DNA of 63,306 nucleotides, counting the filler, from Licmophora abbreviata (Eukaryota): NCBI GenBank assembly GCA_900291995.1. It is 16 parts of 16 records of this genome, joined end to end, with 100 filler letters (N's around TTAATTAATTAA, not from the genome) between each part and the next. Parts side by side here need not be neighbours in the genome. Positions count along the whole stretch, not along the records: positions 40,521 to 47,530 come from OLMU01002131.1; 15 more parts are not named here. One strand, given 5' to 3'. Below, in pieces: positions 4,884 through 58,830 of this stretch; the stretch's first letter is position 1, and every line of letters begins with the position of its first letter. The notes beneath the pieces are model-generated. The model saw only the letters and a program-made list of their open reading frames with translations. It made no database searches and had not been told where the DNA came from. The position numbers were made by a program, and so were the translations under genes.

Positions 4884-4983
4884 NNNNNNNNNNNNNNNNN
4901 NNNNNNNNNNNNNNNNNNNNNNNNNNNTTAATTAATTAANNNNNNNNNNNNNNNNNNNNNNNNNNNNNNNNNNNNNNNNNNNN
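4884..4983. other. Artificial scaffold spacer (44 N + TTAATTAATTAA + 44 N). Identical spacers at 10720-10819, 13908-14007, 17654-17753, 20351-20450, 29220-29319, 32510-32609, 33811-33910, 35193-35292, 40421-40520, 47531-47630, 54904-55003, 57094-57193, 58328-58427, 59839-59938
   Basis: Identical 100-nt layout 15 times. The core gives stop codons in all six frames. Confidence 0.98.
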
Positions 4984-16128: not shown

Positions 16129-17475
16129 CTAGTTCATCAGGGTTATGCGCGGCACCGGTCCCTTGAAGCTCATACGCACCACTGCACATCGCATCATGAT
16201 ATCAATCCCGAGAATTCCAGCCACATTGTCCCTCCACATTTGTGCCAAAACTGCTATCTCACCGATATCGATCGCAGCGCCCCTGTCCGATACCGACAGT
16301 CCAGTGTGCGATGGTCTGCGGCCTAGATTTACGGTCTCTTCCACCGTCAGTCGATGCGTGAGTTTCATGGCGATGTTATCGGAGCCCATGGCGCCGGTAG
16401 GCACGGTAATGGGCTTCATCAACGGAGAGTCGCGTGACAGCCCCAAGTCGGAGGCACCCTTCCAATGTAGCAGTGTGTTGGACGCACCGCTGTCTACAAG
16501 CATCTTGATTGGCCCACGCCCATCAAGAAGCACATCGCATATCCAAATGCCAAGGCTAGTTTTTGACATTTCAGCTTCGGCAATCACCTCGAGATTCTCT
16601 GGAACTGGCGGCTTTCGTTCAACTTTGTACAAGGTCAGGGTGCCGGTGCGAAAGTCCATTTCGACGCATGCAAACTGACTGAGAAACGAAAGACCGATAA
16701 TCCCATCGAGACTCGACGGCAGAGCACCGATGTCTTGGACCGCTGCCGGCATGGGGCCGAAGGTCTCTCCCCCGAATTCGACGCGATCTAGTTGCGTGAG
16801 TCCAGTCGCACCAGTTGTAGTACCTCCTGCTCCCGTCATGGTGACTGGATTGTTATACGATCGCAAATCGTATTGCTTCACGACTGAGGGTCGCAAGACT
16901 AAACCCGAGCAAGCCGTATCTAGCAAAAGAGATAATGTGAAATCGGGCCCGGAAGAATTCTCGACTGCCAACTGAATGGTTGCAAATGGTTGCTCGCTTG
17001 GGTTGATGGTTAGTCCCGCATCGTTAAGAGCTGCTATCATTCTTCCTGCGTCCATGGACGTAAAGAACAAGGGCCCACGGATAGCATTGGAAGGGACGTC
17101 TCTATAGGATGACGTCGGCGACCACAGTGGACTCCTTGGGGCCTTGACGCCGTTGGATGTTGTGGATTTTGGCGGCGGTGAAGCTGCTTTTGGCTCCTCC
17201 CGTCTGGCTTTAAACAATCTCTGCACCAGCTCTTCCTTCTCAAAGGCATCCGCCGATGAGACCTGCATCGACGATAGTTCCGCTTTTATTTCCTTGACGC
17301 GCATGGACCGAATCTCCTCCAATTCATCGGTATCTACTACCTGCAATCTTGTCCTTGGGCGGGAATATGAGGGCAATCGGCTGATCGACTGAGATTGAGG
17401 GCCCAGTCGAAACGCGGAAGTCGCAACAATGATCAAAAGTGGCACTGTCAGCCTGCACAGTTTCGGGGGCGCCAT
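16129..17475 (-). CDS. Plastid-targeted two-domain retropepsin-like aspartyl protease (Asp_protease_2 type) with SAP/LEM-like helical domain
   Basis: Presequence ending ATSA-F. SMRVKEIKAELSS...AFEKEELVQRL helical motif. Two protease halves: LLDTAC...DGIIGLSFL and MLVDSGA...AGILGIDIM. Confidence 0.85.
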   Translation of the reverse strand: MAPPKLCRLTVPLLIIVATSAFRLGPQSQSISRLPSYSRPRTRLQVVDTDELEEIRSMRVKEIKAELSSMQVSSADAFEKEELVQRLFKARREEPKAASPPPKSTTSNGVKAPRSPLWSPTSSYRDVPSNAIRGPLFFTSMDAGRMIAALNDAGLTINPSEQPFATIQLAVENSSGPDFTLSLLLDTACSGLVLRPSVVKQYDLRSYNNPVTMTGAGGTTTGATGLTQLDRVEFGGETFGPMPAAVQDIGALPSSLDGIIGLSFLSQFACVEMDFRTGTLTLYKVERKPPVPENLEVIAEAEMSKTSLGIWICDVLLDGRGPIKMLVDSGASNTLLHWKGASDLGLSRDSPLMKPITVPTGAMGSDNIAMKLTHRLTVEETVNLGRRPSHTGLSVSDRGAAIDIGEIAVLAQMWRDNVAGILGIDIMMRCAVVRMSFKGPVPRITLMN

Positions 17476-17952
17476 GCTTTTGCGGTTTCAGCCTCAAGAA
17501 CGGCAGCGGTGTCGAGTGGCCATCGTCGAGAATGTTGAAGATAATTGGCCGGCGAAGAGCAGGCCAAGCACGGTCAATTTGTGGATTCAAAACGAGCCTT
17601 GCCACGTACGCGCCACACGTTTAGTCAACCACGACTGCAAATTTGAGTCGAGTNNNNNNNNNNNNNNNNNNNNNNNNNNNNNNNNNNNNNNNNNNNNTTA
17701 ATTAATTAANNNNNNNNNNNNNNNNNNNNNNNNNNNNNNNNNNNNNNNNNNNNAGTCGAGTCCTGCGTGACGTTGCACGACACTGCGCGAACACTTTGTG
17801 ATTGAATTTGGTTTCGCGCACGAAATTACCGATGGCTCACATAATACCGCGGCACGGCTATGTCATTCATTCCAGGATTGCGAACAGCTTACCCTCGCAT
17901 GAAAGGCTCAATCTATTTGATGTCGATGCGAATATCATGGAGTCTAGCTATT

Positions 17953-27151: not shown

Positions 27152-29060
27152 CTAGGGCGCCTCAGGGCAGGTCGGTAGGCTGAAGGAACTCAACGCGGCG
27201 TAGTTACCCGCGCGGAATCCCATGTAGCCCTTGTTGGAGCTGGTCACCCAGTTGGGCTTCGAGACTCTCACCGTCTGTCCCACAATGACAGCAGAGGAAA
27301 ACACGCCTGGATCCAGAGTGACGAAGGTCAAATCAAGACCACTCATGCTGAAGTCGAGAACGGCTTCCGGGGTGTCGAATCCGACGTTCATTCCAGCCCA
27401 GTAGGGATTCTGTCCCTGGAATGTGATGTCGCAGTTGGGGCTGCTAACTCCACCACCTCCACCACCACCGGGTGGAGCTGGATCTTCAATGACCAAGAAG
27501 GCGCTGATGACGCCTTCACCGCTCAAGGCGTAAATATGGTTATTGGTGTCGTCCCACTCGGCCGTGACCACGTCCGTATTCGCATCCAGCACACCAATCA
27601 CGATTGGAGCGTTCGTTGGAATGGATTCGGCGAGATGAAACGGCCAGTTGGAGGCCCACCGATTGCTGCTCGTCAACACAAGACCGTTCGAGGGGTAGGA
27701 CGTTTCACCGGCGCCGTCAACGGTGAGAACAGAAATGGTCGTTCCAACGTCCAGGTGCTGGTTGGGCGTGGAGATGAGTGGACCCAGATCAATGTAGAGA
27801 CTAGGAGTTGTGGGAGTATGAAGGAACTGGAAGTCATCGGTACTCGTGTATCCGAGGGTATCCGTCACCAAGAGACGAATCGAGACTTGCTGTTCGGCTG
27901 CAGGAGGCGAGAGCGTCAATGTTGTCGTCGAGGCGGCGAAGTCACCAATGGAGTACACTGTACCGTCGCCCATGGTCGATACGGACCAGACATAGCTCTG
28001 GATGGCACCTTCGGAGGCCGATGCATCCAAAGTGAGAGTAGCCGCGGCCACAATGACGCCTCCAGGGTTTGGGGTGATGCTAATCACAGCATTGACCGGC
28101 GGCGGTGGGGCTTGAGTTGGGAGGGGCGTGGGTACCACCGCACCAGGAGTAGGTTGAGGGGTAGGTGTAGCAGGAGTCAGAGCTGGCGTGGGGCTAGAGT
28201 CACCCAGGAACACGGCGTCGATGCAGCCATGGAAGCGCTCGTAGGTCCACTCATTCCGACCCCACTGTGTGTATACACAGCACAAATTTTAAGTTAGTAT
28301 CTGAACACGGTATCGCGACATCTTACAAGCAAATCAACAGTGTTCTCACTTCTCCGTAAATGACATGACGTCCTACACGGTCTGGAACCTCACAGTACGT
28401 GTCAAACCTGGCGGCGTTGACATCCGGAACAACATCTGGGTTGGCGTTGGGGCTGTTGTTGTTGTAAGGCAAAAAGCAGAAGGGAGTGCTTTCAAAGTCG
28501 TCCCACGTCAATGGGGCATTCGCATTGTACTGAAAGTCGGATTTGGTAATCCAATATCGAAACTCTTCCGTATCAGTGAAGTGTGAGCCCCACGAAATGT
28601 TCCACTTGATCTTGGTGCGTCCAGGAGTCAAGGTGTTGGTGGGCCAGTTGACGCCAGTGGCGTCCCATGGTGTGGATCCTCCGTTCCAAGTCTCGCTGTC
28701 AAAGCCGCAGACGTTGGTCGGAAGTGTGCTTACGCCATTTCTTCCTACATCATGCGTCAAGACACTCATGTACCAGTATCCCCCTTCGCCCGTGAAGTCA
28801 AAGGCGCCCTTGCACTCGGGATACGCGCCTCCTCCGCCATTGGCCTCGTGTGGCTTGGTGATTTCACCGCAGAACCTTGGAGGTGAGACGAAGAAGAAAG
28901 TGGTAAGATGCAAAATCTGATTTGATAAACTCTCGAGTCTCTAGTTGGATTGAACTTACCAGTTACGGGAGGGGGGTTCCTCCATCAGGCCGTGTCCATG
29001 GGTGTGGGCGACGACTCCGAACGCCACTACCAGACGCAACAACGCACCTCGACCGATCAT
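27152..29060 (-). CDS. Secreted multi-domain AA10 lytic polysaccharide monooxygenase (exons 29060-28960, 28875-28350, 28264-27152)
   Basis: Signal peptide followed by mature HGLMEEPPSRNWFCG, second His in WGSHF, FRYWITK, LTWDDFE, GRHVIYGEWGR, ERFHGCIDAVF. Two GT-AG introns (28876-28959, 28265-28349) join in frame. Confidence 0.9.
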
Positions 29061-32649: not shown

Positions 32650-33810
32650 ATGAGATATCGAGATTTCGCATTCATGCACTCTTGCCGTCCATTTCGATCG
32701 ATTCTTCCTGTCCATACTGTTGCTGCTGATTTGAGAATGACCGTAGACGTGGGCAAGAGTGAGAAAGTGACGGATGAGCCTGCTGGCGTGGCAGATGCCC
32801 TCATGAACCGAGGCGAGTATTTGCGACAGCTTCGAAATTTGGAACGGGCGGATCAAGCCGAGCGAGAGCAACATTTGGATGAAGAAGAAGAGAGTGGTGG
32901 CGATTCAATGCTCTTTGATCAGATTGACGTCTTACCCAACACTCTGCGGACGGTTCTCCGGTATGATTCCTATTTACGTCATCAGCGTTACTACGACGAT
33001 CTCAAACATGTCGACTGTGATTTCATTGATTTCGGGTGCATCGGTGACCGAGACCAGAAGATTGAGGGGAGACTCGTTGTACAGCAAGACAAGAGCCTCG
33101 GAAAGGGTGGGTTGGTATGTATCTACACAAAAGGGATCATTGTATAGCAGATGTGTCGCGTCTCTCTAATCCATCAATCGTCGCATATTTATCCAACAGT
33201 GTTGGGATGCTGCTTTTATTCTTGGCGAACACTTGATAAGCACACAAGAGGTATGGGAAGGTGTTGCAAACCCCAAAAAGGCCCGAGTCGTCGAATTGGG
33301 ATCGGGTACCGGCCTTTGCGGTCTAATGATTGCTAAAGCAGTCTCAAATTGTCATGTTGAAATTACAGACTTGCCCGAGCTGCTTCCGCTCATGCAACGA
33401 AATGCTGCCTTGAATTTCGACGAGTGTATGTGTAAAGAAAGGTCCATGGACGATGACGATTGGAAGATATTACTGGGAGAACAGACGACTGCACAAGCTT
33501 GTCGGTCGAAAGGAACCGTCTCGGCGCGAGTATTGCGATGGGGTGTGACAGAGGACTATGGAGGTGGACCCTACGATGTGGTTGTGGGCGCTGATGTCGT
33601 CGCGTCCCTGTATGATCCAGTCGCCTTGGCACACACTCTGCATGTCTTGTGTCACGAAAATTCCATTGTTTATGTGAGCTACAAGGGGCGTCTCACGGGA
33701 CCACATCAACAGTTTGAGGCGACGCTATCGAATTTGTTTAGAAAAGTCGAGAGAATACGACCTTCATCAGCAAGTCGGAATCGTAATCCAAAAGTATGGA
33801 TCATCGTGGC
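32650..33810 (+). CDS. METTL21-like protein lysine methyltransferase (Methyltransf_16); intron 33115-33199; 3' end in gap
   Basis: GKGGLCWDAAFIL, RVVELGSGTGLCGL, ITDL, LRWG, DVVVGADVV. Confidence 0.88.
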
Positions 33811-34204
33811 NNNNNNNNNNNNNNNNNNNNNNNNNNNNNNNNNNNNNNNNNNNNTTAATTAATTAANNNNNNNNNNNNNNNNNNNNNNNNNNNNNNNNNN
33901 NNNNNNNNNNAACAGGCAAAACACAGGACGGGGGGAGGTGACTTAACATATGATATTGTGTACTTACCCGAATCGAGTCGACTGCCATCATTCACTGAAC
34001 TCCAACGGGAGAGTACGACGATGGTTGGCGTCGTATCATAGTTGGCATCGGCTATTGTTTTCGACGTCGATAAGTAAGTGGTGGTCATGGTCACTGAAAT
34101 GACCTGTCATTTCGACTGTGACGGTCACAGCTCACATCAACGCAACTATACTCTCACAAAACAGATTCTATTTGGACTCGCCAGACCTGCGAAACAGGAC
34201 CACC

Positions 34205-37200
34205 ATGGAGTCCGCTGCTGACGATATTGAATCAAGGGCGCCCGCTCATACGAGAGATGGCGACCATGACGTTCCCAAAGAAGCAGGACCGAGAGCTCTC
34301 GTGAAGAACGAAACGAGAGCAATCAGTTTGCTTCGTGGCATCCTCATTGGAGTATTGGTGGTGGCGGTCATCGCTGCGGCAGCGTCGACTTACAAGATTT
34401 CCTCGAAGTGGGAGCAGGATCAGTTCGCCGATGACTTTGAATCAGTGGCGACTAGCATCACAGAGGCGTTCTTACAAGGTGTTAGCGTCAAACTGTGGCA
34501 TGGCTACAGCGTAAGCCTCCTGATATCAAATGCGCTTCACGACACTGGAAATTTCACCGGTTTGACAGTGAGCAACTTTGAAGACTTGTCGCACTCTACG
34601 AGAATTTCGGCTCGTGCATGGAGCATAGTGTGGGCTCCTCTGCTGTGGAGTGACCAAGAAAGAGCATTGTGGGAGGCGGCTTCAACCTCTCAGAATACGT
34701 CGATCGAAAGCACTGACACTGTGACGTGTTCTATTTGTGGAAGCGATGATCTCGAACCTGGTGCTCCGGACGCTCAACTCGAAATCCCTGGGTATGGAAT
34801 AACTACGTGTTCGGGTATTGATATGGCGCTGAGCGACGCCGCCATTGTAAAGCCCGCAGAATGCATCTATCTCCAGACGCTTGCAAGCAGTATATGTCAG
34901 TGCCAAGGATCACAGTCCCCTGTGAGCACGTGGACTGACAATAGAACTACCAGTGACCGCATTTTTCGAATCGAAAACGATGAGATGGTTGATGAGACGG
35001 GGCCTGCCCCGTACTCTCCGACATGGCAGATCGCGCCGCTACAAGGAAAAGGACAAGCCATTCTCTTTAATCAAATGTCAGTGCCCCTTCGAAGTCGCGC
35101 CTTGTTGGCTATGGTGGACTCAAGATTACCGATAGTATCGGAGATGACATGGGACCGTGCTAGCGACGCATTTCGAAATCTCAATGGAATTANNNNNNNN
35201 NNNNNNNNNNNNNNNNNNNNNNNNNNNNNNNNNNNNTTAATTAATTAANNNNNNNNNNNNNNNNNNNNNNNNNNNNNNNNNNNNNNNNNNNNACGTTGAT
35301 ACATTGGGGTCGACGCTGTTCTACCCTGTGTTCGACGAACAGAAGAACGTTGTCGGCTCAACCTCGTTTGGCTTCTCCTGGACCTCGGTTTTTGATTTAC
35401 ACTATCCGCCTCGAAGTGATGGTGTTGTCATTGTAATCGAGAACACATCTGGGCAAATGTTCACTTGCAAGGTTGGAGATGGTGGTCTTATTGCACTAGG
35501 TGAGGGTGACCTTCATGAAGCGCGGTACAACCGTTTTCAGCAGATGTCGAGCTATGAATCATTTTCCAGACACCAGAGACGGACCGCCCCTCTTTCGAAT
35601 GAAGGGGACGATAGTTCTGATTGCCTCTTTCGAGTTCGAGTGTACCCATCTCAAATCGTCGAGAATCACTACACATCAAACCGACCGATGGTGTACACGT
35701 GTCTAGTGACGCTGATCTTCGTGTTCACTACATCAGTCTTTCTCTTGTATGACTATGCTGTCCGACGAAGGCAGAATAAGGTCATGGAATCAGCGGTACG
35801 CACCGAAGCTATCGTATCTTCTCTGTACCCCGACGGCGTGCGCGAGCGACTTTTCCGATGGGATGTAGGAGCAGGAGCCACAACGCGCAACCGCAAAAAG
35901 TTTATGCCTCGTCTGGAGACACCAAAGGTACTTCTTCGTCATTTTCTGGCGAACTCTCGATCGAACAAAGACGGCGTGAAACCTGGCAGTGAACCGATTG
36001 CGGACTTTTTCTCCAACACCACAATTCTATTTGCCGACATCGCTGGGTTCACGGCGTGGAGTTCGGAACGTGAGCCAACGCAGGTCTTCACTCTTCTCGA
36101 GAGCCTGTACCACTCCTTTGACGAGATCGCCCAACAGACTGGTATCTTCAAAGTGGAGACGATCGGGGACAGTTACGTCGCTGTCTCTGGTTTGCCGGAA
36201 GCAAGGGATGACCACGCAGTCGCCATGTCCCTGTTTGCTTCTCGTGTCATGAGCGCGATGCACAGTCTTGCTAGAAAGCTAGAGGAATCTCTTGGTCCCG
36301 GAACCGGTGATCTGTCGCTTCGTATCGGTCTGCATTCGGGCCCCGTCACCGCCGGCGTTTTGAGAGGTGCAAAGTCTCGCTTCCAACTGTTTGGCGATAC
36401 AGTTAATTGTGCAAGTCGGGTAAGTGTCGCATGTTTACTTTCGTCGAGTGCTGGTTGAACGGGACTCCCATGCTGACACCCGCTATCTGCCCTTGTCAGA
36501 TGGAGAGTACAGGTTCCGTTGGAAGGATTCAAGTCAGTGCTGAGACTGCCAATCTTCTAGTCGAGGCAGGGAAAGTTTCTTGGATATCGAGAAGAGAAGA
36601 GTTGGTCCCTGTCAAGGGTAAAGGCGAACTACAAACCTACTGGGTTCAACCGACTGTGTCCGACCAGCATACCAGTTCTCAGAGGTCTGCGTCATGTTCG
36701 TCGTCCAAGTACACAAACGGGGTGATTTGGGGCTCCGCAAGTATTGAAGATTCTTTTTCGAGCAACGCAAACGAGCCAGACAAGTGGAAACGTATGGTCG
36801 AATGGAATGTCGACGTTCTAGTTGGTATTTTAAAGAAAGTTGTTGCGAAACGTCAGGCAGCTGCCAACCGAGCTACATTCAGAGCGAGTCGCAACAAGAG
36901 GAAGCCATCGATTGCGAAGGGTACAGCCGCCGTTCTGCGGCATGAGATTGACCCTGAATCAATCGATCTTGGGCCGGAAGTCCGTTCACAACTTCGAGAC
37001 TACGTGACACGAATCGCGAGCCTTTACCAGGACGTCCCTTTCCATGATTTTGACCATGCTAGCCACGTCCTCATGTCGGCAAACAAGCTCTTGAATCGTA
37101 TTGTTCGACCAGATGACGTTGAACACAAGACAAGGTCAAAGCGACCGAAGAAGCAGCATCGCTCTCTTGCACGAGAGATACACAAATCAACATTTGGGAT

Positions 37201-37990
37201 TAGTTCAGATCCATTGATGCAGTTGGCGGTCGTCCTCTCTGCGCTTGTTCACGACGTGAAGCACCCTGGTGTCCCAAATGCGCAGCTTATTAAGGAAGGC
37301 GATCCAGTTGCTATCAAATTTAACGGCAGGAGTGTTCTGGAGAATCAATCTGTCCAGTGCGCTCTGGACATGCTAATGGAAGATGCGTATACGGATCTGC
37401 AGGCATGCATTTACGATTCGGAAAGCGAGAGGCTACAATTCAGTGATCTTGTCGTAACCGCAATCATTTCTACGGACATTGCTGACAAGGAGTTGAACAA
37501 CGCGCGCAAAAGACGATGGAATGAGGTATTCCACACAGACGATGAAGAGTCGACCAGTGATGAACTCGTACACCGGAAAGCTATGATTGTCTTTGAGCAC
37601 ATCATCCAGGCGTCTGATGTTGCTCATACGATGCAGCACTGGCACATCTTTTTGAAGTGGAATGAACGCTTGTTCGAGGAGAGGTACTCTGCATTTATGG
37701 AAGGTCGTGCGGAAGACCCGTCGACTGACTGGTATCAAGGAGAGATCGCGTTCTTTGATTTTTACGTGATTCCCCTGGCGAAGAAATTGAGAGAATGTGG
37801 CGTCTTTGGGGTCTCAGGCGACGAGTACCTCAACTACGCCGTCGAGAATCGAAGAGAGTGGGAGATCAAAGGGAAGGGGATTACGAAGGAAATGATTGCA
37901 CGTTACAGTAGTAGGGCAGCTCTGAAGCAAGAGATCAACACCAATGCTCAGAGTTTACGTCGCCTGAGTATGAATGCTGCTCAGGCTTAA
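34205..37990 (+). CDS. Receptor-type nucleotide cyclase-phosphodiesterase fusion (TM-CHASE-like-TM-cyclase-PDE); spans gap 35193-35292; intron 36420-36499
   Basis: Two TM helices. Cyclase motifs TILFADIAGFT, KVETIGDSY, RIGLHSGPV, FQLFGDTVNCASRMES. PDE motifs PFHDFDHASHV, HDVKHPG, QASDVAH. Gap flanks join in frame. Confidence 0.92.
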
Positions 37991-38448: not shown

Positions 38449-41400
38449 ATGACTCCGACAACCATCGAGCCCATGGAGGAGAGCTCTGTGCAGCGAATCG
38501 TCGCGGGGCAAGCCGTGACGGATCTTGCGAGTGCTGTGAAGGAACTAGTCGATAACGCACTCGATGCCGGAGCGAAGAGCATTAACAGTGAGTTTCTGAA
38601 TTTTGTGAAATTCCCTGTGAAACTTGAACTTTCGATTTGACTGCTCATGCCGCTCGCCACACGCTGCCGTTCTCTCTTCATTTCACAGTTCGTCTTTTTA
38701 ACCAAGGAATCGACGTTGTGGAAGTGTCTGACGATGGGTCTGGCGTACCGATGTCATCTCGTCCGTACTTGGCAATGAAGCATGCGACTTCCAAGATTCG
38801 CTCCTTTGATGACATCTACAGCGGCGTGTCGCATTCCCTCGGGTTTCGAGGAGAGGCACTTTTTTGCCTTGCCAATATCAGTCAGAGTCTCGTTATTGCC
38901 ACACGAACAGCTCAAGATCCCATTGGACAAAAGTTGACCTTTCAGTCCGATGGGACGATGGATGCGGATTCAGTGACAAGCCTTGCGCGAAAAATTGGAA
39001 CTACCGTCGCAGTCGTCAAACTGTTTCACAACCTGCCGGTCCGAAGAAACGACATGATCAAGCGAATCAAGGCACAGCGAGGCAAACTTATAAGCCTGAT
39101 TCAGGGATGTAAGTCATTAATTCTTGTCAACGTATGAAGAGTCCTTCGTCGGTTGTGTACTCACCACCCAGCCGTGTTGCCATGTCTCCGTTAGACGCCA
39201 TTCTCTGTACGGGGGTGCGATTTAATCTCATTGACATTGTGGGAAATTCATTTCGCGAAGACGTCAAATTGTGCACTAGTAGCTCAAGTACTACCGTGGA
39301 GCAAACATTGAGCAGCGTGATGGGAAGCAAGTTTCTTGCCGGCATGACGCCCATTTCTGTAGATCTTTCGACGGCGTTGCCGGGCGGTCAGATGAAAGGA
39401 TTGATTAGCAAAGCACCCGCCTTGACCGCTCGAGACGGATCTGTTGCGAGGGATGCACAGTTCTTCAGCATAAATGGCCGTCCTGTTGAGGTGCCCAAGC
39501 TGTCCCGTGCCTTGAGCGAGGCATGGCGTACAATGGAAGGAAGCAAGAAGCGACCAGCGTGTGTGCTGTGTCTGACACTTCCGTTTTCCGAATACGACGT
39601 CAATCTGTCGCCCAACAAGCGAGAAGTATTACTGACGCACGAGTCCGCCCTTTGTACTGCGGTTCATGATGCGGTGGCATCCTTGTGGGCGAGTCAGAGC
39701 CATGGGAGCTTTGCGGCCAATGAGGTGAATGTGGCGACAACGGCGCGTCCAAGTGTGACTGTTTCCGACAAACCGGTGGACGTTTTGGCACCTCCAACCG
39801 ATAATTCTCCCCGAGCGTCTCCAGGAAAGAGCCCTTCGCGTCGAGCTAGGCGCCGTAACGCGTTTGTACATGATTTTCGGAACGCTCGTATGCAACATGA
39901 TATCGACGAGCCGCATGAGTCTGAAACGCCCGTCACTGGACAGCCGGTGCTCGAGCACGAAGGTGTTGCGGAGAGGGAGACGGTTCGCCCCGTAATGGAA
40001 CCGCTTCCTCGACCGCCTCGCATCGATACTGGATATGATGAAGCAAGTGACGACGAAAGGATCCAATGGGCGACCGCAAAGTTCAGGTTCAATCAGTCGA
40101 ATCGACAAAGCCAACGAGACGAAATTGAGAGCCTGAGCGGAATCCGAAAGCGCCATGTAGATGATCCCATCGCGGGCGCTGCGATGGCACCGCTGGAGAG
40201 AGTGTCGAAGACTGACTCATCACACTCTCGCAATGGAGACGCCCTGTCTAATCTACCACTGGAAAACGAAGTGGACGGTCCACAACGGAAAAAAGCGTTC
40301 ACGCTTGAAGACTTCTCGTTCCGTTCAATTGGCGGCGCAAGTGCCCTAGTGACGAAGCGGATAGGGACAACGTCTCAGCTAAATGCAGTAGTCGATGGTG
40401 CCACTCAGACGGAAATGGAANNNNNNNNNNNNNNNNNNNNNNNNNNNNNNNNNNNNNNNNNNNNTTAATTAATTAANNNNNNNNNNNNNNNNNNNNNNNN
40501 NNNNNNNNNNNNNNNNNNNNGGAAATGGAAGAGTCGACAGGTGATGCTCACAATTCATTGCCACCTGCTCACTCATCAAAGAAGGTTGGCACTCCCGCGA
40601 ACAGTCAATCTATCCTCGCCCAGGCGTCAACGCGGAAGAGTCCCCAAAGCGTGGAGACCACGATCGTCAGCAACGTCCGTCCAGAAGTATCGGAGGTGAC
40701 TAGCCCCAGTACTGAAGAGATAGACGACGCGACACCATGTCCGGAAGCCGTCGTATGGAGGTCGTTCGGCGCGACTGATGCTGTCGTTGATGAAGCGAGG
40801 AAAGCGCGATTGGAGACGAGGCGTACAAAGGAGAAGCTCAGGGCTCTTGCCAGGGTGCGCAGGAATTCATCGGCCCAAGACAATGAGGCTTCCGAGGCTG
40901 GCGTCGGTGATACCGTCGGCATTAACGACGATGACTCCGACAGCGATATCAGTATCAGTGGCGTTGTACACCTGTCTAAGGACGACTTTGCCGATATGCA
41001 AGTTATTGGACAGTTCAACCTTGGTTTTATTCTCGCCAGGTGTCGCAACAACCACTTGTGGATTCTAGACCAGCACGCATGCGATGAGAAGTTCAACTTT
41101 GAGCGGCTCTGTCACGAAACTGTCATTCACGAGCAGAAACTCCTGACCCCCATGTCTCTGGAACTGAGTGTCTCAGAGGAAAGCTGCATTCTGGAACACT
41201 TGGACGTTTTTGAGAAGAATGGCTTTCGCTTCCAGCATGATTCGGACAAGCCGCCTCGACATCGGCTGTCCCTCACCGCACTGCCGCACAGCGGTGCCCA
41301 AGACGGCCGCAAAGCGGTTCAATTCGGAAAGGATGATGTACAAGCCCTCTGTGCTCTTCTAGGAAACCAAGATGCAGACTACGAGAGTCAGGACGGGGGA

Positions 41401-41853
41401 ACTGGGGTCGATGGTACCGGACTCCAAGGCAACAATGCTGTTCGGCGATATGCAGGCAAGCAGTCGCAACTTACGCAGGGGTCTGCCAGTTGCGACAGGA
41501 ACAACGCAGACAAGGCGATCGCTCGACTTCCCAAGGCGATTGCCATGTTTGCCAATCGTGCTTGCCGGGGGAGCATAATGATCGGAACGGCACTTTCGTC
41601 CAAGGAGATGGTGTCGGTTGTGCGGCGATTGTCAGACGTTTGTCACCCATGGAACTGTCCACACGGGCGGCCTACGATGCGCCATGTGCGGGACATTCAG
41701 GGAACACTAAGCAGAGATGAAGTTCGAGCTGCCGAGTATATTGCAGCACCCACTGTTACGTTCCTGACGCAAGAGCCCTTGAGTCAAGAGGACGACGGTG
41801 ACGAGAACAATGCTGAACAGGAGCAAGACACGAGTTCTATAATCCGCAAATAA
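38449..41853 (+). CDS. PMS2: MutL homolog PMS2/PMS1 mismatch-repair endonuclease (introns 38588-38688, 39109-39194; spans gap 40421-40520)
   Basis: AVKELVDNALDAGA, DDGSG, KHATSK, LGFRGEAL, DVNLSPNKR, GQFNLGFI, DQHACDEKFNFE, ACR, PWNCPHGRP. Confidence 0.93.
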
Positions 41854-41896
41854 TCTAAGGTGTTAGCATAGAAATCATGACACGATAGTGCTGCTA

Positions 41897-42292
41897 TCAT
41901 ACATAAACTATCAGAAAAAGCAGAACGACCACCACTGCAGTGAGTGTGAGAATAAGAAGGAAGTTTTTGGTGCCCCCGGCTTTTTGTATCATTTCCCTCG
42001 TTTTCCGCGTGACAAGATCCAGGTTCTCCGTGGCAGTCTCCAAATCGTGCTCCATGTCGTCGAGCATCTTATTCTGATGACCCAGCTCTTCGGAGATCGT
42101 AGCAGACATCTGACCCAGTCGGTCCGCACTCTGACTGAGCATTTCAAGACCTTGGTCTTGGCGCCGTATCTGCTCCTTCTGGGAACGCATGTGTCGCTGC
42201 ATGAAATCCTCTCCTTCGTCGCTGCTGTCGTCGCTGAACTCCTGAGGAGGGACTTGCCGATAGCTCCCGTTCCCGTCGCTCCTTGAAAACAT
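41897..42292 (-). CDS. Qc-SNARE (syntaxin-6/8-like), tail-anchored
   Basis: QDQGLEMLSQSADRLGQMSATISEELGHQNKMLDDM SNARE heptads followed by a C-terminal TM helix. Confidence 0.85.
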   Translation of the reverse strand: MFSRSDGNGSYRQVPPQEFSDDSSDEGEDFMQRHMRSQKEQIRRQDQGLEMLSQSADRLGQMSATISEELGHQNKMLDDMEHDLETATENLDLVTRKTREMIQKAGGTKNFLLILTLTAVVVVLLFLIVYV

Positions 42293-42747
42293 GATAGACG
42301 TCGTTTCTACGTAGGCGAATCAGTATTGTGAAGAAAGACTCAGAACAGGAGGGGCACGAGTCGAGTCCTCGTGTTCTCAGTTGGGCCAATGGGCACTTTG
42401 AGATGGATCGCAAGATGGCAGCGTCCTCACTTGGAGCAAGACCAACTATGAGATTTTTTATCAACGTGAGATATGACAGAAGACTATTGTTCTTGTGCAC
42501 AGAAGACAAGACGAGTCCTGGAGACGCTGTGGTCACGCCATGGTCGGCGTTGCGAAAAAGTGAGCGTCGCCGGTCATTCCGGATAAAAGGGAATTCGGAA
42601 TCTTGACTGCGGTCGGTCAGGGAGCGACGTGGAACTTCAGTTGGTTTCGTGCTTGAGGAGATGGATAGCTACAAGAAACAAGTACCGATTGCTACAACTG
42701 TCGTATCGATTGAGTTGACTACGTTCTTAGGATATACATCAATGAGG

Positions 42748-45700
42748 TCACAGATCGTCGTACGTTGGAAGTCGCTTGGACGGATCTTGGGCGTCCCAGT
42801 GGATTCCCTGCCGCTCGAAGAAGTAGTCTGGATCCGCTGGGGGGTAGGGCTGCGTTAGCGTTTCGATCAAGCCATCGACATTGTCCTTTGTGATTTCGGC
42901 AATGTACACAGAAACGACTAGTCGCATTTCTCCAGTGAAGCGATGATCAGCTTCAGCAGTGCCATGATAGGTCTCGTCTCCCATCACAGCGGCGACATCG
43001 TATTCGTATTTGTAGCCTCCCTTGTTCGAGCCCTCTTCTCCGTCCAACACAAACAGCTCTGGCTTGGAATCATTTGCTAGAATCAACGGCACGATCACGT
43101 TGAACACCTTTCCATCTGGATCTGTAAAGTCTTTGTGAACGAAGCCCTTGTTGCAGTGAGATACCGTCATGAAGGACAAATGGTAGCATTGTAGAGCTTC
43201 AAGACCAAACCGCTGGCCAATCGCAGACAGAATTTCGTCAAACCCCGACGAGCCCAGCATACGGAGGAAGTCAACCTGTGCTTCCTCATCATTTGGACTA
43301 AGCCAGTGCATGTCGCTCTGGTAATGAGCTGCCGTTCGCTGGATAAACCAGTTGAAGCCCTCAAACGTTTCGAATTCGTCTCCGCTGGGTTCAAGACCTT
43401 CCCCTTCAACCACCAACGAGTGCGACAAGTCGATGATGCCCATGCGATCAGCGTAGGCCATGATTCCTTCAGAGAGTTCAGGCCTGAGTCCAATTCGGAA
43501 TCCATATTCGGTCAGTATTTCGTTTGTGTCCGCCCATTGGAAGGGCTCGATCTCGTTTGGCTCCAGAGAACGACTAGCAAAGTCGTTAACAACCCGACCA
43601 CGCGGTAGCTTCTTGCTCGGATCATCTCGTTTCCAGTGACGACCAGCGTTATCGTAAAAGAACCGGGCGTCGTCGTTGGGCGGAAAAGATTGATTGATCC
43701 ATTTCATCACCTCTTCAATGTTCGAATTGTCAACGTCAGTAATGTAGACCGACATCATTAGCCGCAACTCGCCGTCGTCGCGATAGTTATTAGCGGCAGT
43801 TGCGTGGTCCGCATCGTCACCCATAACTGCGGCTACGTCAAACTCAAAGTTGTATTCGCCAATCATGGTTCCTTCGTCATTGCGAATGAGAAGCTCAGGA
43901 TCGGAGTCTTCGACCAGCACAAGAGGGAAAATCAAGTTATATGTCGCGTTTCCGCTCTCGGTAAAATCGTAGTGCATAAATGATTCACTGCACTCCGACA
44001 CGACCATCAACGAGAGCTGGAAACAAAAGAGACCATCCAGATTGAAATGATTCCCGATACTTTCAAGAACCTGGTCGAATCCACCGTCCCCGAGCACCCG
44101 AAGGAAGTCCTCTTGTGCTTCTTCGTCGTCGGGTGATATCCAGTGCATGTTCGAGTTGTAGTGTGGGCTTGGACGTGTCACGTACCAGTTGTACCCACCA
44201 AAGGTGAGATCGGCGTCTCCATTCGGTGGGAGGGCATTGCCGTCGATCACCAACGAGCGAGACTTTTTTATTATTCCCATTCGCTCACAGTAGGAAAGCA
44301 CTGCGCTAGTCAGACCAGCTGGAAGTCCGATCCGAAATGCGTTTTCAGACAATACTTTTCGTAACTTCTCCCACTTGAAAACTGCAATCTCCCCGGGCTC
44401 CACATCATTGATCTCGATTTCGAAAACCTCTTCGTTCCGTTCTGGTCTGAAATCTGACATCCACTCTGCCGGGAAAAATCCGGGAGGGGTAGCAATTGGT
44501 TGACGAAAGGCCTTCCGCACATGCATGTCTGTAGTGTATGGGGCGTCCACGAAGCGAATCATGTGTCGGGGCACTCCTGTCACGATGGCGTCATCTTGGC
44601 TAAGCCGGCAGAATGGAGAGTCGTGAAGCTCGTTCATTTGCCAGACACGAACCCGGTAGAGTTCCTCTTGGCTCTCTTTAGGAGGGATTCTTTTGACAAT
44701 CTCACATGGACGGAGGCAGTCGTGGACTTCGTTTCGCCATTTATGCCATCCAGGATGCTCGCCATCTTCGACCTTCATTTCCCATAAGCATGCAGTCATT
44801 ATGTTGTCTGGATAAGGATCAGCTTCCTGCTCAGCACTGGTACGGACACTCTCGCTCCCATGTTCGGCCTCAAACTCGGTAGCAGCCACGTACTCTTTCG
44901 AACCTGCCATTTTTGGCCAAGCTCGCTCCCTCCACGACCATAAGGCTTCCCAAGTCTCGCCGTAGTCCAGAAAAATCTCCTCACCTTCCGCGACATCACG
45001 AAGTGCGACATACTCAATATATGGAGCCTGTTCTGTTTTGAGGAGTTCGTGGAACGGCTCTTCAAGCAGCTCTTCGGTGTCCCCCAGGGAAGACCATTGA
45101 ATCTTGACGTTTGCCATTGAGACATTGTGGTTGATGAAGTTGACCACAGGCGCGGAAGGCAGCAACACAATTTCAGAGTGGGGGTCTCCAAGGACGTAGT
45201 TCTTGAGCAGCTGATAAGCCTTCCGCTTGCTTTGGAAAAGCAGTCGACCCTCGTCGTCTCCCTCTGTTGCAATAGCCTGTTCCATGACGTCTAGGTCCCG
45301 TCGGCGCATTGGAATGACAGGGGCGGGAGCAACGACACTGCCTTTAGGAAGAAACCGCGACGCCAACGCCCCTCGACCGGCTCCAGGGATCGTGCTGGAT
45401 TGAGGATATAGATTATCAATACAATGGCAACTCGTCTTGAGCCAGTCTGGGTTACGTGGAAAGGGCCGCCTCCGGACAGGCTGGTCCTCATGTCCAGGAC
45501 AGTCAATGAAGAGCTCGTCGCCGGCACGAATGTTTGTGGAAGCAAATTTAGTAAAGTTGTGGTAATAGGAAAACGACCCTGCCGAAGAGTCCTTGTGTCG
45601 ATGCACTCCATCACTGTCGTGGTGGATTCCGGAATCGGGCCTTACATTTTGAAGCTCCTGTGTGGACACGACGAAGTGAGGGGCACATATAGTATGATGA

Positions 45701-46202
45701 TGATGAGATTTGTGTCAATACAGGTACGCACTGCTTAGTGCAATATAGAGGCACGTACCGCATGACACTGAATTGGCCAGCCAAAGCCAGGCGCAAAGAC
45801 GCGCAAGTTATAATCGCTCTCAAACGAAATCTCAGGGATGAAATCGGCACCCCAGAATCTGTCATGCCAGAGCTGAGGCTCGTTCAAATTGGGATCAACC
45901 ATGGGGATGACAATGTCAGGCTGCCCCACGTCGTCGCCTTCTATAATATCGATACCAGAAAAGATACCTAATCCTCCCAGTCTGGATTCGGCAAGGTACA
46001 GTCGACACGGTGGAGCTTGCGTGTCTAGTGACGCCTGCTTTGTAGTCAATGAAGCCGCAGTGCCATTGTCGTCGCCCTCGACACAGAAATCGTCATCGGA
46101 AGCAAGGCACTCATTTTCTCCTACACATTGAACTGTGTACACAGCCGTTGATGCCACCAGGGCGGCTAGCAACCACCGCTTCCCACCGCCAATCATCGTC
46201 AT
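42748..46202 (-). CDS. Secretory-pathway tandem SET-domain protein fused to two 2OG/Fe(II)-oxygenase-like repeats (intron 45658-45758)
   Basis: Signal peptide. SET1 CRLYLAES..GLGIFSG...IRAGDELFID. SET2 STIPGAGRGALA...FINHN...ALRDVAEGEEIFLDYG. Two ~265-aa repeats with HxD...H...RLxxSVY. C-terminus YDDL. Confidence 0.85.
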
Positions 46203-46603
46203 GGGCACAGCGTCGAGGAATTATGACGGAACCATGAAAATATACTCGTGACTGAACGGCGCGCCAAACCGAACTTTGAACTTTCCCGCAATCCAGATGT
46301 CTCTGCGAGCTCCGCACACGGAACGCGCACCGTCGGAAGACATCAGAGAAAGTTCGAAAGTGGTGTGCTTCTGCCGTGTTTGAGGCTACCGTAGTTAGAG
46401 AGTCTAAACGTCCTGTTAGCTAGTGTTTCATCTTTGCTGCTAGAGCCTGTAATGGCATTTTAGTTCATTGTTCGTATTGTGGTACACATTCAAAGTAAGC
46501 TGCGCGCGTCGACGATAATCTACCATTTCCGCAGAAACAAGATCGATGAGATGCACTCCAGCCGAGCTGTCGCATGCCATCACAGTAGCCGACCTGCATG
46601 CTT

Positions 46604-47503
46604 TTACTGGCTACTCTGCTGCAAATGCGAACATCCAATCCAGAAAGAAATGCCAATCAGTACGCCGACCACTGTGTAGGGGATGACAGCCAGTACAACC
46701 AGAATCGTAACCAAAATGACGCAAACACCACAGACTGCAACGTGACGATTCCTCTGTCGTCTCCTGAGGCGAATTTGAGCATGCGTCGTTGGAAGATTTT
46801 GTGCTGGCGAATCGGCAGAAGCAGTGTCGTCGTCGGGACTTGGATTCACATTCTGTCCGACTCTCCTCCGTTCCGACGTGGCCATGGAGTCTTTCCATCG
46901 ACGGATCGAAGGATGCAAGGAGTCGTCCGTACGATCCTTTTCGTCTTGAATGAGATCGTAGAGAGCATTGTTCTGTCGGAGAGCCGATAGAGCAAGTTGA
47001 CTTCGTGTCATGGGCGACACTCCGTTGGCCCGAATCCAATTTTCGATCGCATCATGCTCGTAGCTGTACCCTTCCGGACTAATGACTGGGTCGACCATGA
47101 GTTCACACGTAATGGGACAGTAGTAAGAAGGCGGCAGCGGACGGTGCTCAATGGCAAAGGCAGACTGTTCCACCAAGCGACCCCATCCGTTCTTCAAAGT
47201 TTCATCGAGACGGCGGATGCTGCCGCGCATACTGTTGGAAGCCAGATCCAGCTCTCGTTCGATAATGGACTTGAGGGCCCGGTTCTTGTAGTAGGAAGAC
47301 TGTTCATTCTGTTGATCCGACATGTCGTCCACGGTGGATTGATCGTAGGAATCTCCTGCAGCATTGACGACCGGATCGACCATGATCTTGCCCGTCATGG
47401 GATCGTAAAAGGCGTTCGGGAACGCGCGCTCTTGTGTGTCGCCGGACACTCCTTCCATGTCTATTTCTTCTTCCTTTTCATCCTCGACTTCATTGACTGT
47501 CAT
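46604..47503 (-). CDS. Double U-box domain protein with C-terminal TM helices
   Basis: PNAFYDPMTGKIMVDPVV..GDSYD...NRALK and PPSYYCPITCELMVDPVISPEGYSYEHDAIENW...SPMTR...NNAL. Hydrophobic C-terminus. Confidence 0.88.
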   Translation of the reverse strand: MTVNEVEDEKEEEIDMEGVSGDTQERAFPNAFYDPMTGKIMVDPVVNAAGDSYDQSTVDDMSDQQNEQSSYYKNRALKSIIERELDLASNSMRGSIRRLDETLKNGWGRLVEQSAFAIEHRPLPPSYYCPITCELMVDPVISPEGYSYEHDAIENWIRANGVSPMTRSQLALSALRQNNALYDLIQDEKDRTDDSLHPSIRRWKDSMATSERRRVGQNVNPSPDDDTASADSPAQNLPTTHAQIRLRRRQRNRHVAVCGVCVILVTILVVLAVIPYTVVGVLIGISFWIGCSHLQQSSQ

Positions 47504-47505
47504 GC

Positions 47506-47648
47506 TGGTGGTGGTGGTGGTGGTGGTGGTNNNNNNNNNNNNNNNNNNNNNNNNNNNNNNNNNNNNNNNNNNNNTTAATTAATTAANNNNNNNNNNNNNN
47601 NNNNNNNNNNNNNNNNNNNNNNNNNNNNNNTGCTGCTGCTGCTGCTGG
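47506..47648. repeat. (GGT)n and (TGC)n microsatellites flanking an assembly gap
   Basis: tggtggtgg... before the gap and tgctgctgc... after it. Confidence 0.85.
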
Positions 47649-47853: not shown

Positions 47854-49907
47854 ATGACGGAGCTACCCAACGAGACTCAGCCGCAGCAGCAGTCGGTGGA
47901 CACGGAAGATACTCGCCGTCCATCACCGCATCAACACCGCCATCCCGTCATGATTCGACGTCGCGAAAAGCGTAGACACGTATCGTCCGCGTCTGTCGAT
48001 ATGAGAGACCCCTTGGAAGTCTTGTCCTTGGCGATTCGATTGGACGAAGCGACGGGGAATGCGGCACTCCTCGAGGCACCTCTGGAGGACGGCGGCCGTC
48101 TCTATGCCTCGCAAGACACCTTTCTCAAAGCCATGGCCTACTTGGAGGACCAGACCAAGCCTTTATCGAGGACCCGAAGCGGACATGCTTCTGCCAAGAA
48201 CTGGTCGGGTCGCGTCGTCCAGCCTTGACTCCCATTATCTTGTCGGGACTCATTGCTGGGCAGCTGGCGCTGCAGCAAGAGTCCATCACTACTACTACTA
48301 CTCATACTACACTTCCATCGCCATCGGAAATGCTACTCTTTTGTGATACTGGGCGCCGTCAGGCTTTGAATAGAATCAACTCACGACGGCGACGAGCCTA
48401 TATGCGAAATATGACGATTGTCTGTTGCCTCGTTGGTCTCCTGGTTGGATCGCACTATCAGGCCATGGCTCGAGTCCAGACTGCCCTCATGGAACTGGGC
48501 TATGTGGGACTTGTACAAACGTCAGACTACTTGACTCGAAATTGCACGACGAACAACAACAACAACAACAACCAGTTGGAAGAGATTCTTGGACTGCAGC
48601 CGTGCGAGACCTTCGCGACCCGTGGCTACGAGACGGCCTGTCGCGTCGCCGAGGCGCGGCTCTGGGCATTCACCAAGGATTATGCACTCCCCTACTCGTC
48701 GCAGCATCGTCAGTGCAACTACAATCGTTGTGGGGCCACAGACGGGCGATCTATCATTCGACACCAGCTGTCCAATCTGCCCGGACGAGCCCAAGAGTTT
48801 CCGTTGGGACATGCGCCGTATGCAATGCATACGGTCGCGGTACGGGAGGAAACGATCTTGGATCAAAAGAACAATCGCAGAAAACATACAAACGCCCGAC
48901 ACGGAGAACTTGGGTGGCTTGGTGACAGTCTCGTCAATCGCCGCACCAGAGCAGCCATGGAAGAGTTGGCGGAGGACCGAACGCAAAATGACATCACTAT
49001 TCGTGTTCTCGATGTCGGGTGCGGTATTGGGGGCATGATGTATGCACTTTTGCCTTTCGAACAACGAGGAAAGACTCGTCGGTCTAACTTGCATTACGAC
49101 TATACCGGCATCTCGTTGGCTGCTTCCGAGATTCAGAATGCACGTCTACTGCGAGACGAGCACAAAGTCGATCCCTCGAGAGCTCGATTTCTGCAAATGA
49201 GTTTCGACGACGCTCGACTGCCGGATACAGGCCCATACGATGCGATCGTTGCGACCGAGGTGCTTTCCTTTTCGACAAATATCACGGCAACGCTGACGAA
49301 CTTGGTGCGATCCTTGCACCATGGTGGAAGTCTGATCATTCATGAAGATGTAGTGCATGGACCGCGAAGAGCGCGACCGGCGGAGAATAGCGATAGGAAT
49401 TTGCAATCTCGGATGAATGAGTTTTCCGAACTTACGGCTCGGCCTTCCTTGTACACCCACGCGCAGTGGATGGACCTGTTCAAAGAGTTCAATCTAGAAG
49501 TCGTTCGAGCGACGGACTGGGGCCTCCACGACAAACTGCCTCTACTTGTGACGGAAGGTCAGGAAAAATCATTCCATCTGTGGGATTGGATGTTACGACT
49601 CCGAGTGGTACTTTTAAGTTGGACTGAACGATGGGATGCGTGGAACCCCTTGCTCCGTCAAGATATCATTCACAATCTCCTACAACGCTGGGAGGATTGG
49701 AAGTGGCACGCCGTGTCAGCCGGTGTTAGTGCGGGTGCTCCTTTTGGAAAGTATCGGTTGAAAGCGATGGCTGCTGTTCGTACGGTCCAGCTCATTCGAG
49801 GAGATGCGAGAGTCTCTCGTGCCGATCAGCTACGTAGCCAGGCGCACGAACGAGTCGATTTGACGTACAACATGTACGTTAGTAAACGGAGTGACGACGA
49901 CACTTAA
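47854..49907 (+). CDS. Membrane-anchored class I SAM-dependent methyltransferase (probable frameshift near 48155)
   Basis: IRVLDVGCGIGG, YTGISL, FLQMSFD, YDAIVATE, LHHGGSLIIHE. TM segment IVCCLVGLLVG. The upstream ORF from 47854 overlaps in another frame. Confidence 0.75.
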
Positions 49908-57464: not shown

Positions 57465-58830
57465 CTACCCAAAGCAAAGAATGTCCGTCCAGCCGGGGAT
57501 ATTCTGCACCTCAGATGGCAATAGGTCTCCATTCTTGTCCCTCCATCGATTGTGAGGTCCGACGGATTGCACCATGTCATCAAACGTCGCCGTCACCGCA
57601 TCTCCGAGTATGAGCTCTGGCGTCCCTACCATTTTGTACCCGAACTTGGAGTCTTTCTTGTGGACAGGATGATGGTACGCGAGATGAGTACACACGTATC
57701 CGGCATCGTAAATCATTTCAAGAATGGTTTTTGGTTCCGTGTTAGCCATGTGTAAGAGGATATGCGAATACTCGACCAAAAGAAAGCGGGGGCGGTGCTT
57801 TCCGTGCAGCAAGTCGTGTGCCCCTCGAATGACAGCCTCTTCATTTCCTTGTGTGTCGGTTTTGAATAGGTGCACGCGCTCGAGCATCGACGAGTCGATA
57901 AACTTGTGCACGGGTCCTGTCCGTACAGTAGTCATGACATGAGCTTCCTCCGCCTTGGGATCGATCAAGTGGTAAGACTGCGAGCCGGGGTCATGCGTGC
58001 CGACGTATCCAAACGTCTTGAGCGCTTCTGTGCCGTCCAGACCAACACAGTTAACGTGAACGCGATCTTGTAGCTTTTCCTTTTGGACGTTCAGCTTCAG
58101 CGTTTCGCAAGTCTCCTCCACAGGCTCGAAGGAGAAGACAGTGTGTCCTTCTTTTGCAAGGGGTAGGCCGAACTGGCCAATATTTGCCCCAATGTCGACC
58201 ACAGTGGCCTTCTTTCCCGACCCAAGGAGGATACTCATGACGTTTTCTGGCATATCGAGAGGCAAAATGTGATCCAGATAGGATTGTTTGACGACCATAT
58301 CGTGAAACTTGCTGCTGCCCGCTTGCTNNNNNNNNNNNNNNNNNNNNNNNNNNNNNNNNNNNNNNNNNNNNTTAATTAATTAANNNNNNNNNNNNNNNNN
58401 NNNNNNNNNNNNNNNNNNNNNNNNNNNGTTGTTGTTGTTGTTGTTGTTGTTGTTGTTGCAAACCGTCGCACCTTTGAATGACGGAAGGATACTTGTCCGC
58501 CATTGGGTTCATGAGTGCGTACTCGGCCTTTGCCAATGCCAGTGTCTCAGACAGTGACGCGTTCTCTCGAATGCCCCCGACAAAAAGTGGCGACTTGATG
58601 AATTCCAATACCGCCTCCTTGGTGCAGACCATGGCACCAGTAGTAGCACCGCGTCGCAATGAGTTCATTTCCTCAATCAAGCCACGCGCCATCATTCCAT
58701 CGTATTTGTGGTTGCTAAAAGAGGCACGAAGCGCGACCAAGAGAATCACCATGACGGAGCAGAAAGTACCCAAGGTTGGACGGCGGTATCTTGTCGCCCT
58801 CTTGTGTGCGGGTCGGAAAGCCAAGGTCAT
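57465..58830 (-). CDS. Type II membrane FkbM-family methyltransferase (spans gap 58328-58427, poly-Q tract)
   Basis: VVDIGANIGQF, VFSFEP, LFKTDTQGNE. N-terminal TM segment. Gap flanks join in frame (CAA CAG CAA GCG). Confidence 0.85.
58428..58458. repeat. (GTT)n microsatellite encoding poly-Q
   Basis: gttgttgtt... next to the gap. Confidence 0.9.

Follow-up and report, generated by a model that had tools for sequence, protein, structure and literature searches.

Trimethyl-δ-hydroxylysine was found in diatom cell walls in 1970, and according to the portions of a review that deal with silaffins, the lysines of these proteins are di- and trimethylated after import into the endoplasmic reticulum (ER), and silica precipitation cannot do without their lysine modifications (PMC4557024). 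The closest described protein family is that of the BacSETs, diatom-specific, ER-targeted SET-domain proteins which have been proposed to methylate wall proteins or polyamines (PMC11151724, PMC11554505, bioRxiv 10.1101/2020.11.23.393678, citing Nemoto 2020); 24 BacSETs of Seminavis robusta are described there as peaking together with cell-wall genes (bioRxiv 10.1101/2020.11.23.393678). Here we describe a gene of Licmophora abbreviata (assembly GCA_900291995.1) whose product joins SET domains to two copies of an Fe(II)/2-oxoglutarate (2OG) oxygenase-like domain. All coordinates refer to the whole stretch of DNA that was analysed, 63,306 nt made of 16 joined parts and called the window below, in which positions 40,521–47,530 come from OLMU01002131.1. 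The gene occupies 46202..42748 on the minus strand in two exons separated by a 101-nt intron, and its product has 1,117 amino acids (aa). A signal-peptide-like N-terminus is followed by two domains of SET origin, the first SET-like and degenerate and the second canonical, then by a β-rich linker and finally by two tandem domains of about 275 aa.

Like a BacSET, the window protein combines a signal-peptide-like N-terminus with SET, and its relatives with organism names are all diatoms. It differs from the BacSETs as these sources describe them, that is, with the SET domain only, in that a 2OG/Fe(II) oxygenase domain, present in one to four copies, makes up the C-terminal half of its family's proteins. 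Set beside the published family by description, the window protein would be a BacSET member. In the literature that we searched, diatom SET proteins are nowhere described as having a 2OG-oxygenase domain, no lysine hydroxylase is described from diatoms, and the architecture itself, in which a signal peptide precedes SET and 2OG oxygenase, did not come up; the first two points may be touched on by Nemoto 2020 and Poulsen 2013.

The reading that we favour, and which we regard as evenly balanced between right and wrong, is that the protein is a lumenal multi-enzyme of the BacSET group, in which the second SET domain (SET2) methylates, and the oxygenase domains hydroxylate, lysines of secreted substrates. 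In the lumen of the ER or Golgi, SET2 would use S-adenosylmethionine to methylate the ε-amino groups of lysines in lysine-rich secreted substrates, presumably of the silaffin type. Each oxygenase domain would hold Fe(II) through a His-x-Asp…His triad and 2OG through the Arg of the next strand, and with O2 it would hydroxylate a C–H bond on the substrates of SET2. The likeliest target would be the (methylated) lysine side chain, hydroxylation of which at the δ position would give the ε-N,N,N-trimethyl-δ-hydroxylysine of diatom walls.

The preliminary description of this locus, made from sequence, had recognised two tandem repeats of about 265 aa, and we find them close to where it had placed them. 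The first, R1 (43603..44421, minus strand, 273 aa), is defined by its motifs, the repeat alignment and conservation, and the second, R2 (42751..43602, minus strand, 284 aa), by its structural model, by Foldseek and VIA-align searches with that model and by conservation; 125 of 268 aligned residues are identical between them (47%, E 5e-97). That they would go without standard annotation had likewise been foreseen, and indeed no Pfam family covers either of them, even at E≤10. A double-stranded β-helix (DSBH) had also been expected. An AlphaFold2 (AF2) model of R2, built on an alignment of 25 domains (alignment A1), reached a predicted local distance difference test score (pLDDT) of 94.5 and a predicted template-modelling score of 0.93, and Foldseek matched it to 443 PDB chains at E≤1e-3, those listed all being Fe/2OG oxygenases, halogenases or epimerases, among them the Pseudomonas prolyl 4-hydroxylase (P4H) 4iw3, the CurA halogenase, PHD2, SnoN, AsqJ and OGFOD1. 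VIA-align of the same model against 48,161 chains gave 94 chains at Z≥8, led by SnoK (Z 12.8, root-mean-square deviation (rmsd) 3.6, 211 residues aligned), CurA Hal (Z 12.4), and AviO1 and AsqJ (both Z 12.2), and 47 of the 50 matches listed are named Fe/2OG-type oxygenases. The protein-language-model (Atlas) neighbours of both R1 and R2 are 2OG-oxygenase clusters, with scores of 0.91–0.96. These comparisons, made largely with a model, support the assignment of the repeats to DSBH domains of the Fe(II)/2OG-oxygenase superfamily.

In 2OG oxygenases the HxD motif follows a strand, the distal His lies inside a strand and an Arg is placed on the next one. In the R2 model the HxD comes after a long strand (residues 136–150, R2 numbering), H213 lies within strand 212–215, and R227 opens strand 227–235. 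The motifs are MHYDF, DHATA and RLMMSVY in R1 and VHKDF, YHGTA and RLVVSVY in R2; all six, which the preliminary description had read as HxD…H plus a distal Arg, stand where it had put them, and both window copies are intact. In the numbering of exon 2, the predicted metal- and 2OG-binding residues, identified by motif position and conservation, are H562, D564, H618 and R632 in R1 (codons 43974–43972, 43968–43966, 43806–43804 and 43764–43762, within 43762..43974, minus strand) and H841, D843, H898 and R912 in R2 (codons 43137–43135, 43131–43129, 42966–42964 and 42924–42922, within 42922..43137, minus strand). The His-Asp-His triad would cluster in space around the metal, and R227 (R912 in exon 2, equivalent to R632 of R1), 14 residues past the distal His, would bind the C5 carboxylate of 2OG. 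Halogenases have Gly or Ala at the position of the HxD Asp; because the Asp is present here, the site is of the hydroxylase and not of the halogenase type, and a halogenase reading was rejected.

Conservation in homologues, on which the preliminary description had made its case depend, bears this site out. All 25 aligned domains of A1 have H156, D158 and H213, and at least 90% of them have R227. When all domain copies of 183 family proteins were aligned to the profile, 203 of 237 copies covered the four columns, and 176 of these 203 keep H-D-H-R; at least one intact copy is found in 166 of the 172 proteins that have a fully covered copy. The degenerate copies number 27, and because 20 of them lack two or more of the four residues together (reading, for example, WSSM, TTSR or RSTM), the joint loss and retention is the pattern of a joint catalytic site, for which catalysis is the predicted role.

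The two SET domains that had been described are both derived from SET, and only the second keeps the catalytic motifs. SET2 (44917..45429, minus strand, exon-2 residues ~77–247) is a match to the Pfam SET family (PF00856) over exon-2 residues 94–233, with 48.9 bits against a cut-off of 22.4. For the NH…N and DY motifs of SET domains, N176-H177, N183 and D231-Y232 are all invariant or at least 90% conserved among 28 sequences (H177, N183 and G233 being invariant and Y232 at least 90%). In an AF2 model of exon-2 residues 1–412, built on the same number of sequences and with a pLDDT of 82, the SET2 portion was matched by Foldseek to vSET, SET8 and MLL1 (E 6e-7 to 1e-5), and residues of about 77–247 were matched by VIA-align to PFL0690c (Z 13.0, rmsd 2.5, 110 aligned) and SET7/9 (Z 12.3). 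SET2 thus appears to be a catalytically equipped SET lysine N-methyltransferase, and would be active as such.

SET-like domain 1 (SET1; 45499..46016, minus strand, protein residues ~63–201) is split by the intron, and exon 1 alone gave no Pfam match. Its kinship emerged from profile comparison, in which the SET1 profile (27 homologues) was aligned by HHalign to the SET2 profile with a probability of 96.6% (E 5.7e-10, 148 columns). The catalytic motifs are absent: IQCHA has CH for NH, with Cys in place of Asn, and LFIDC has DC for DY, with Cys in place of Tyr, and the Cys at the Tyr position recurs in the homologues P0004 and P0016. SET1 is homologous to SET and is, to judge from these motifs, probably degenerate and non-catalytic.

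Fusion of SET to the oxygenase domain is recurrent. An exhaustive profile search of 1.84 billion representatives gave 751 clusters at E≤1e-3 and 318 clusters at E≤1e-30 for the oxygenase-domain family, whose members have from one to four copies of the domain. Among the best 150 representatives, with SET called by Pfam at E≤1e-4, it is found in 48, and in 46 of the 65 that are at least 600 aa long; the fusion stood in this sense, with the reservation that a minority of members is fused instead to P4H plus ShK, to PhyH, or to ankyrin/MBD. That it recurs is an argument for common substrates of oxygenase and lysine methyltransferase. Organism names, obtained for three homologues when 20 clusters were looked up, are those of Stauroneis constricta, Nitzschia sp. 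RCC80 and Mayamaea pseudoterrestris, all of them diatoms; a word-index search contributed no further name. A pattern scan of genome contigs for prokaryotic relatives matched eight stretches, none of which was confirmed by tblastn, a weak test that relied on a single peptide pattern.

A lumenal location is predicted from several features of the family. The first 26 or so residues of the window protein, MTMIGGGKRWLLAALVASTAVYTVQC (46125..46202, minus strand), have K8/R9 followed by a single hydrophobic stretch (residues ~10–24, Kyte-Doolittle 2.3) whose peak, an 11-aa window of the same value, begins at residue 11, and the rest of the protein has no transmembrane-like window in the same test. 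Of 107 homologues with an initial M and a length of at least 600 aa, 66 showed a similar stretch in the same crude test, and evident fragments are among the rest. On this heuristic basis the N-terminus fits a signal peptide, as had been claimed. A [DE]EL tail ends 6 of 182 family proteins, where 0.15 would be expected from composition, and some relatives are for this reason probably retained in the ER. Owing to the signal peptides, the ShK and P4H partners and the [DE]EL tails, most family members are predicted to reside in the secretory pathway.

The domain order is based on the following gene model. Exon 1 (45759..46202, minus strand, 148 aa), defined by its open reading frame (ORF) and by homologues that align across its 3' end, starts with the ATG at 46202 and runs for 148 codons up to …WPIQCHA, taking in the signal-peptide-like N-terminus and the N-terminal two thirds of SET1. 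The intron (45658..45758, minus strand, 101 nt, GTACGT…CAG, phase 0), which the preliminary description had passed over, is indicated by the sequence itself, by a stop in the unspliced frame and by homology across the junction: GTACGT follows codon 148 directly, the unspliced frame ends seven codons further on (VRASILH, then stop), and the CAG at 45660–45658 precedes an open frame of 969 codons. Exon 2 (42748..45657, minus strand) accordingly encodes 969 aa at 45657..42751, with the stop codon at 42750..42748. When the spliced product was aligned to its homologues, 58 of 141 BLASTP high-scoring segment pairs spanned the junction between residues 148 and 149, and the homologue P0004 (1,379 aa) showed no gap there, its alignment covering 359 residues with 42% identity. 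Because alignments to homologues cross it, the exon junction is supported by homology. Between SET2 and R1 lies the β-rich linker (44422..44916, minus strand, exon-2 residues 248–412), about 165 aa long, which is conserved in homologues and was delimited from the secondary structure of the AF2 model, where it is predicted with moderate to high confidence (block pLDDT mostly 72–96). It could be a substrate- or methyl-lysine-binding module.

A number of observations weigh against our proposal and have to be set beside the evidence for it. At the level of sequence, the repeats match none of the curated families (PF13640, PF03171, PF05721, PF02668, JmjC and others); a profile of 25 domains searched against PDB sequences gave only chance matches and no oxygenase (best E 0.051, SUMO); and local HHalign comparison with the P4H domains (PF13640) of the family members P0010, P0012, P0049 and P0092 gave a probability of 0.2%, which is uninformative given a P4H profile of four sequences. 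Since no curated sequence family matched them despite the DSBH fold, the repeats are a family within the 2OG-oxygenase superfamily that lacks a Pfam model. At the level of structure, a particular likeness to lysyl hydroxylases is not favoured by the matches: the mimivirus enzyme L230 (6ax6; Z 9.8, rmsd 3.3, 154 aligned) is at rank 50 of the VIA-align matches listed, below many unrelated 2OG oxygenases and well below SnoK, and enzymes of the trimethyllysine hydroxylase type (TauD-like) are absent from those matches. The C-terminus, …RLPTYDDL, had been taken to resemble an xDEL retention signal, an idea that we rejected: YDDL is neither [KH]DEL nor [DE]EL, and it aligns with the plain end of a domain, as in P0008 (795 residues), where its counterpart RLPTYDAL forms the end of the last domain copy (residues 498–776), ahead of a 19-residue tail.

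The partners of the domain in other members point in the same unfavourable direction. A P4H domain (PF13640) together with ShK is found in two of the 150 representatives, and likewise in P0010 and P0012, which came from a word-index search, the members with this fusion being P0010, P0012, P0049 and P0092; a further three representatives have ShK alone. PhyH occurs in one, P0165, whose own oxygenase copy is degenerate (QDYR) and which has a separate PhyH-type domain downstream. MBD occurs in two, P0161 and P0114, which lack a signal peptide and have H-D-H-R intact: the Nitzschia sp. RCC80 protein P0161 combines ankyrin, SET, oxygenase and MBD, and P0114 oxygenase and MBD, and from their domain content they look like a chromatin-associated branch of the module. 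Because a minority is fused to P4H plus ShK, to PhyH, or to ankyrin plus MBD, the oxygenase module is not exclusive to a silaffin pathway, and lysine in wall proteins is not its sole conceivable target. Taxonomic sampling is moreover thin, consisting of the three names from 20 clusters given above. That our weighing stops at an even balance has three grounds: in fold, the repeats resemble other oxygenases at least as closely as they do lysyl hydroxylases, the P4H-fused members keep alive a reading as hydroxylases of proline or other residues, and the MBD/ankyrin members keep alive a demethylase or chromatin reading.

The P4H fusions lead directly to the view that the oxygenases hydroxylate another residue on the same secreted substrates, for example proline a second time, which would yield 3,4-dihydroxyproline, or else Asp or Asn, with the SET fusion reflecting a shared substrate only. 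This would agree with the joining of the domain to a bona fide P4H (PF13640) and ShK in the four members just named, with the bacterial P4H, PHD2 and OGFOD1 among the top fold matches, and with the Asp_Arg_Hydrox and PF13640 clusters among the Atlas neighbours of R1; 3,4-dihydroxyproline is also, in the review's account, a known amino acid of diatom walls (PMC4557024). We nevertheless consider it fairly unlikely, given that 48 of the 150 representatives are SET fusions and two are P4H fusions and that the profile comparison with the family's own P4H domains returned the very low probability stated above. Another reading takes its cue from the MBD members, namely that the oxygenases are oxidative N-methyl-lysine demethylases, which would hydroxylate the N-methyl carbon in the manner of JmjC and AlkB enzymes and form with SET a writer–eraser pair that sets the methylation state. 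P0161 and P0114, with their intact H-D-H-R, provide the chromatin-like context in which writer/eraser combinations are usual, and AlkB, ALKBH1, ALKBH7 and NMAD-1 are among the fold matches (Z 10.0–10.4). Still, hydroxylases are matched at least as well, Pfam gave neither JmjC nor any other demethylase family, most members look secretory, and it would be futile to join a methyltransferase to the enzyme that erases its mark; we hold demethylation to be unlikely.

The oxygenases might also act on a small molecule or polyamine, such as free lysine, ornithine or long-chain polyamines, with SET methylating the same amine, and the link between BacSETs and long-chain polyamines in published speculation, as far as the sources' passages on it go, points that way (PMC11151724, PMC11554505). 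So do the best fold matches, which are the small-molecule tailoring enzymes SnoK, CurA Hal, AviO1, AsqJ, AndA and HalB (the last at Z 11.2), and the HalD (PF23169) clusters among the Atlas neighbours of R2 (score 0.93). However, substrates are not predictable from fold rank among 2OG oxygenases, enzymes that modify proteins typically have such a multi-domain secretory architecture, here with ShK and P4H as partners, and every characterised SET domain known to us is a protein-lysine methyltransferase, so that we deem this very unlikely. Finally, it is conceivable that the repeats do no chemistry at all and are binding or scaffold modules, i.e. pseudo-oxygenases, that present substrates to SET. 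What speaks for such a role is that 27 of the 203 family copies have been retained despite partial or full loss of H-D-H-R and that R774, H784, D807, P857, H953 and W954 are conserved even in these degenerate copies; yet all four residues are in place in both window copies, and an intact copy in 166 of the 172 proteins is the pattern expected from selection on catalysis, which leaves this as a highly improbable account.

Returning to the proposal of a lumenal lysine methyltransferase and hydroxylase, a bolder version of it can be formulated, one that we hold only tentatively and with the balance tipped against it. In this version, one lumenal polypeptide would both trimethylate and δ-hydroxylate lysines by way of an unrecognised 2OG-oxygenase family, it would be the long-sought maker of the trimethyl-δ-hydroxylysine of biosilica, and the tandem, partly degenerate copies would act as a built-in pseudo-dimer for clustered lysines. 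The gene family, with its approximately 750 clusters, offers a concrete, clonable candidate for both remaining steps, lysine methylation and hydroxylation. It defines a new 2OG-oxygenase family, joined to SET in a new architecture, and brings an old question within direct experimental reach. If the proposal is true, fully modified silaffin peptides could be produced enzymatically for biomimetic silica.

With a chlorophyll-binding antenna gene and a guanylate cyclase-phosphodiesterase, the window has the look of nuclear DNA from a photosynthetic eukaryote; MutL, a SNARE and a U-box protein, encoded immediately next to the SET-oxygenase gene, are unrelated to it. The cyclase-phosphodiesterase (35295–37987, plus strand), apparently a single gene, encodes a 3',5'-cyclic nucleotide phosphodiesterase domain downstream of a guanylate/adenylate cyclase catalytic domain. 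Adjoining ORFs at 27155–28940 (minus strand) contain LPMO_10 (AA10 lytic polysaccharide monooxygenase) and GbpA_2 chitin-binding domains and are probably one gene for a chitin-active lytic polysaccharide monooxygenase. Three more methyltransferase genes were noted, of the Methyltransf_16 type (class I lysine methyltransferase family; 33170–33811, plus strand), the Methyltransf_23/12 type (47976–49904, plus strand) and the FkbM type (57468–58325, minus strand), and the window annotation gave no link between them and the SET-oxygenase gene. An ORF at 16132–17487 (minus strand) with retroviral-type aspartyl protease domains (Asp_protease_2, gag-asp_proteas) may be a DDI1-like gene or what is left of a retroelement. 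At 15 places (e.g. 4884–4983, 40421–40520 and 47531–47630; 1,320 N in total) there are two runs of 44 N with 12 bases between them, which interrupt several ORFs; these are the filler between the joined parts.

Beyond the BacSETs, four known systems are instructive for comparison. With P4H, PHD2, OGFOD1 and PhyH-like enzymes (4iw3, 2g19, 4nhx, 2a1x) the repeats share the DSBH and an HxD…H followed by a basic residue on the next strand (Foldseek E ~1e-7 to 1e-6, VIA-align Z 10–12); unlike these enzymes, they belong to none of the sequence families, are 7–16% identical, have an extra N-terminal segment, and are arranged in tandem and fused to SET. The collagen-type lysyl hydroxylases PLOD/LH3 and the mimivirus L230 have the DSBH fold as well, and lumenal Fe/2OG-dependent 5-hydroxylation of peptidyl lysine is the very chemistry proposed here, whereas specific structural or sequence kinship with them is not apparent, the glycosyltransferase domains are missing, and the lysine acted on would be methylated and would belong to proteins other than collagen. 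TMLHE, the trimethyllysine hydroxylase that functions in carnitine synthesis, is an Fe/2OG oxygenase of the TauD-like group that hydroxylates free ε-N-trimethyllysine at C3; it resembles the proposed enzyme in hydroxylating trimethyllysine and departs from it in acting on the free amino acid, at C3 and with a TauD-like domain. The silaffin kinase tpSTK1, located in the ER/Golgi of Thalassiosira pseudonana, is the sole silaffin-modifying enzyme mentioned in the review sections consulted (PMC4557024), and although it is a kinase, unrelated to the window protein in fold and chemistry, it is, as we propose for the SET-oxygenase protein, a signal-peptide-bearing modifier of silaffins within the secretory pathway.

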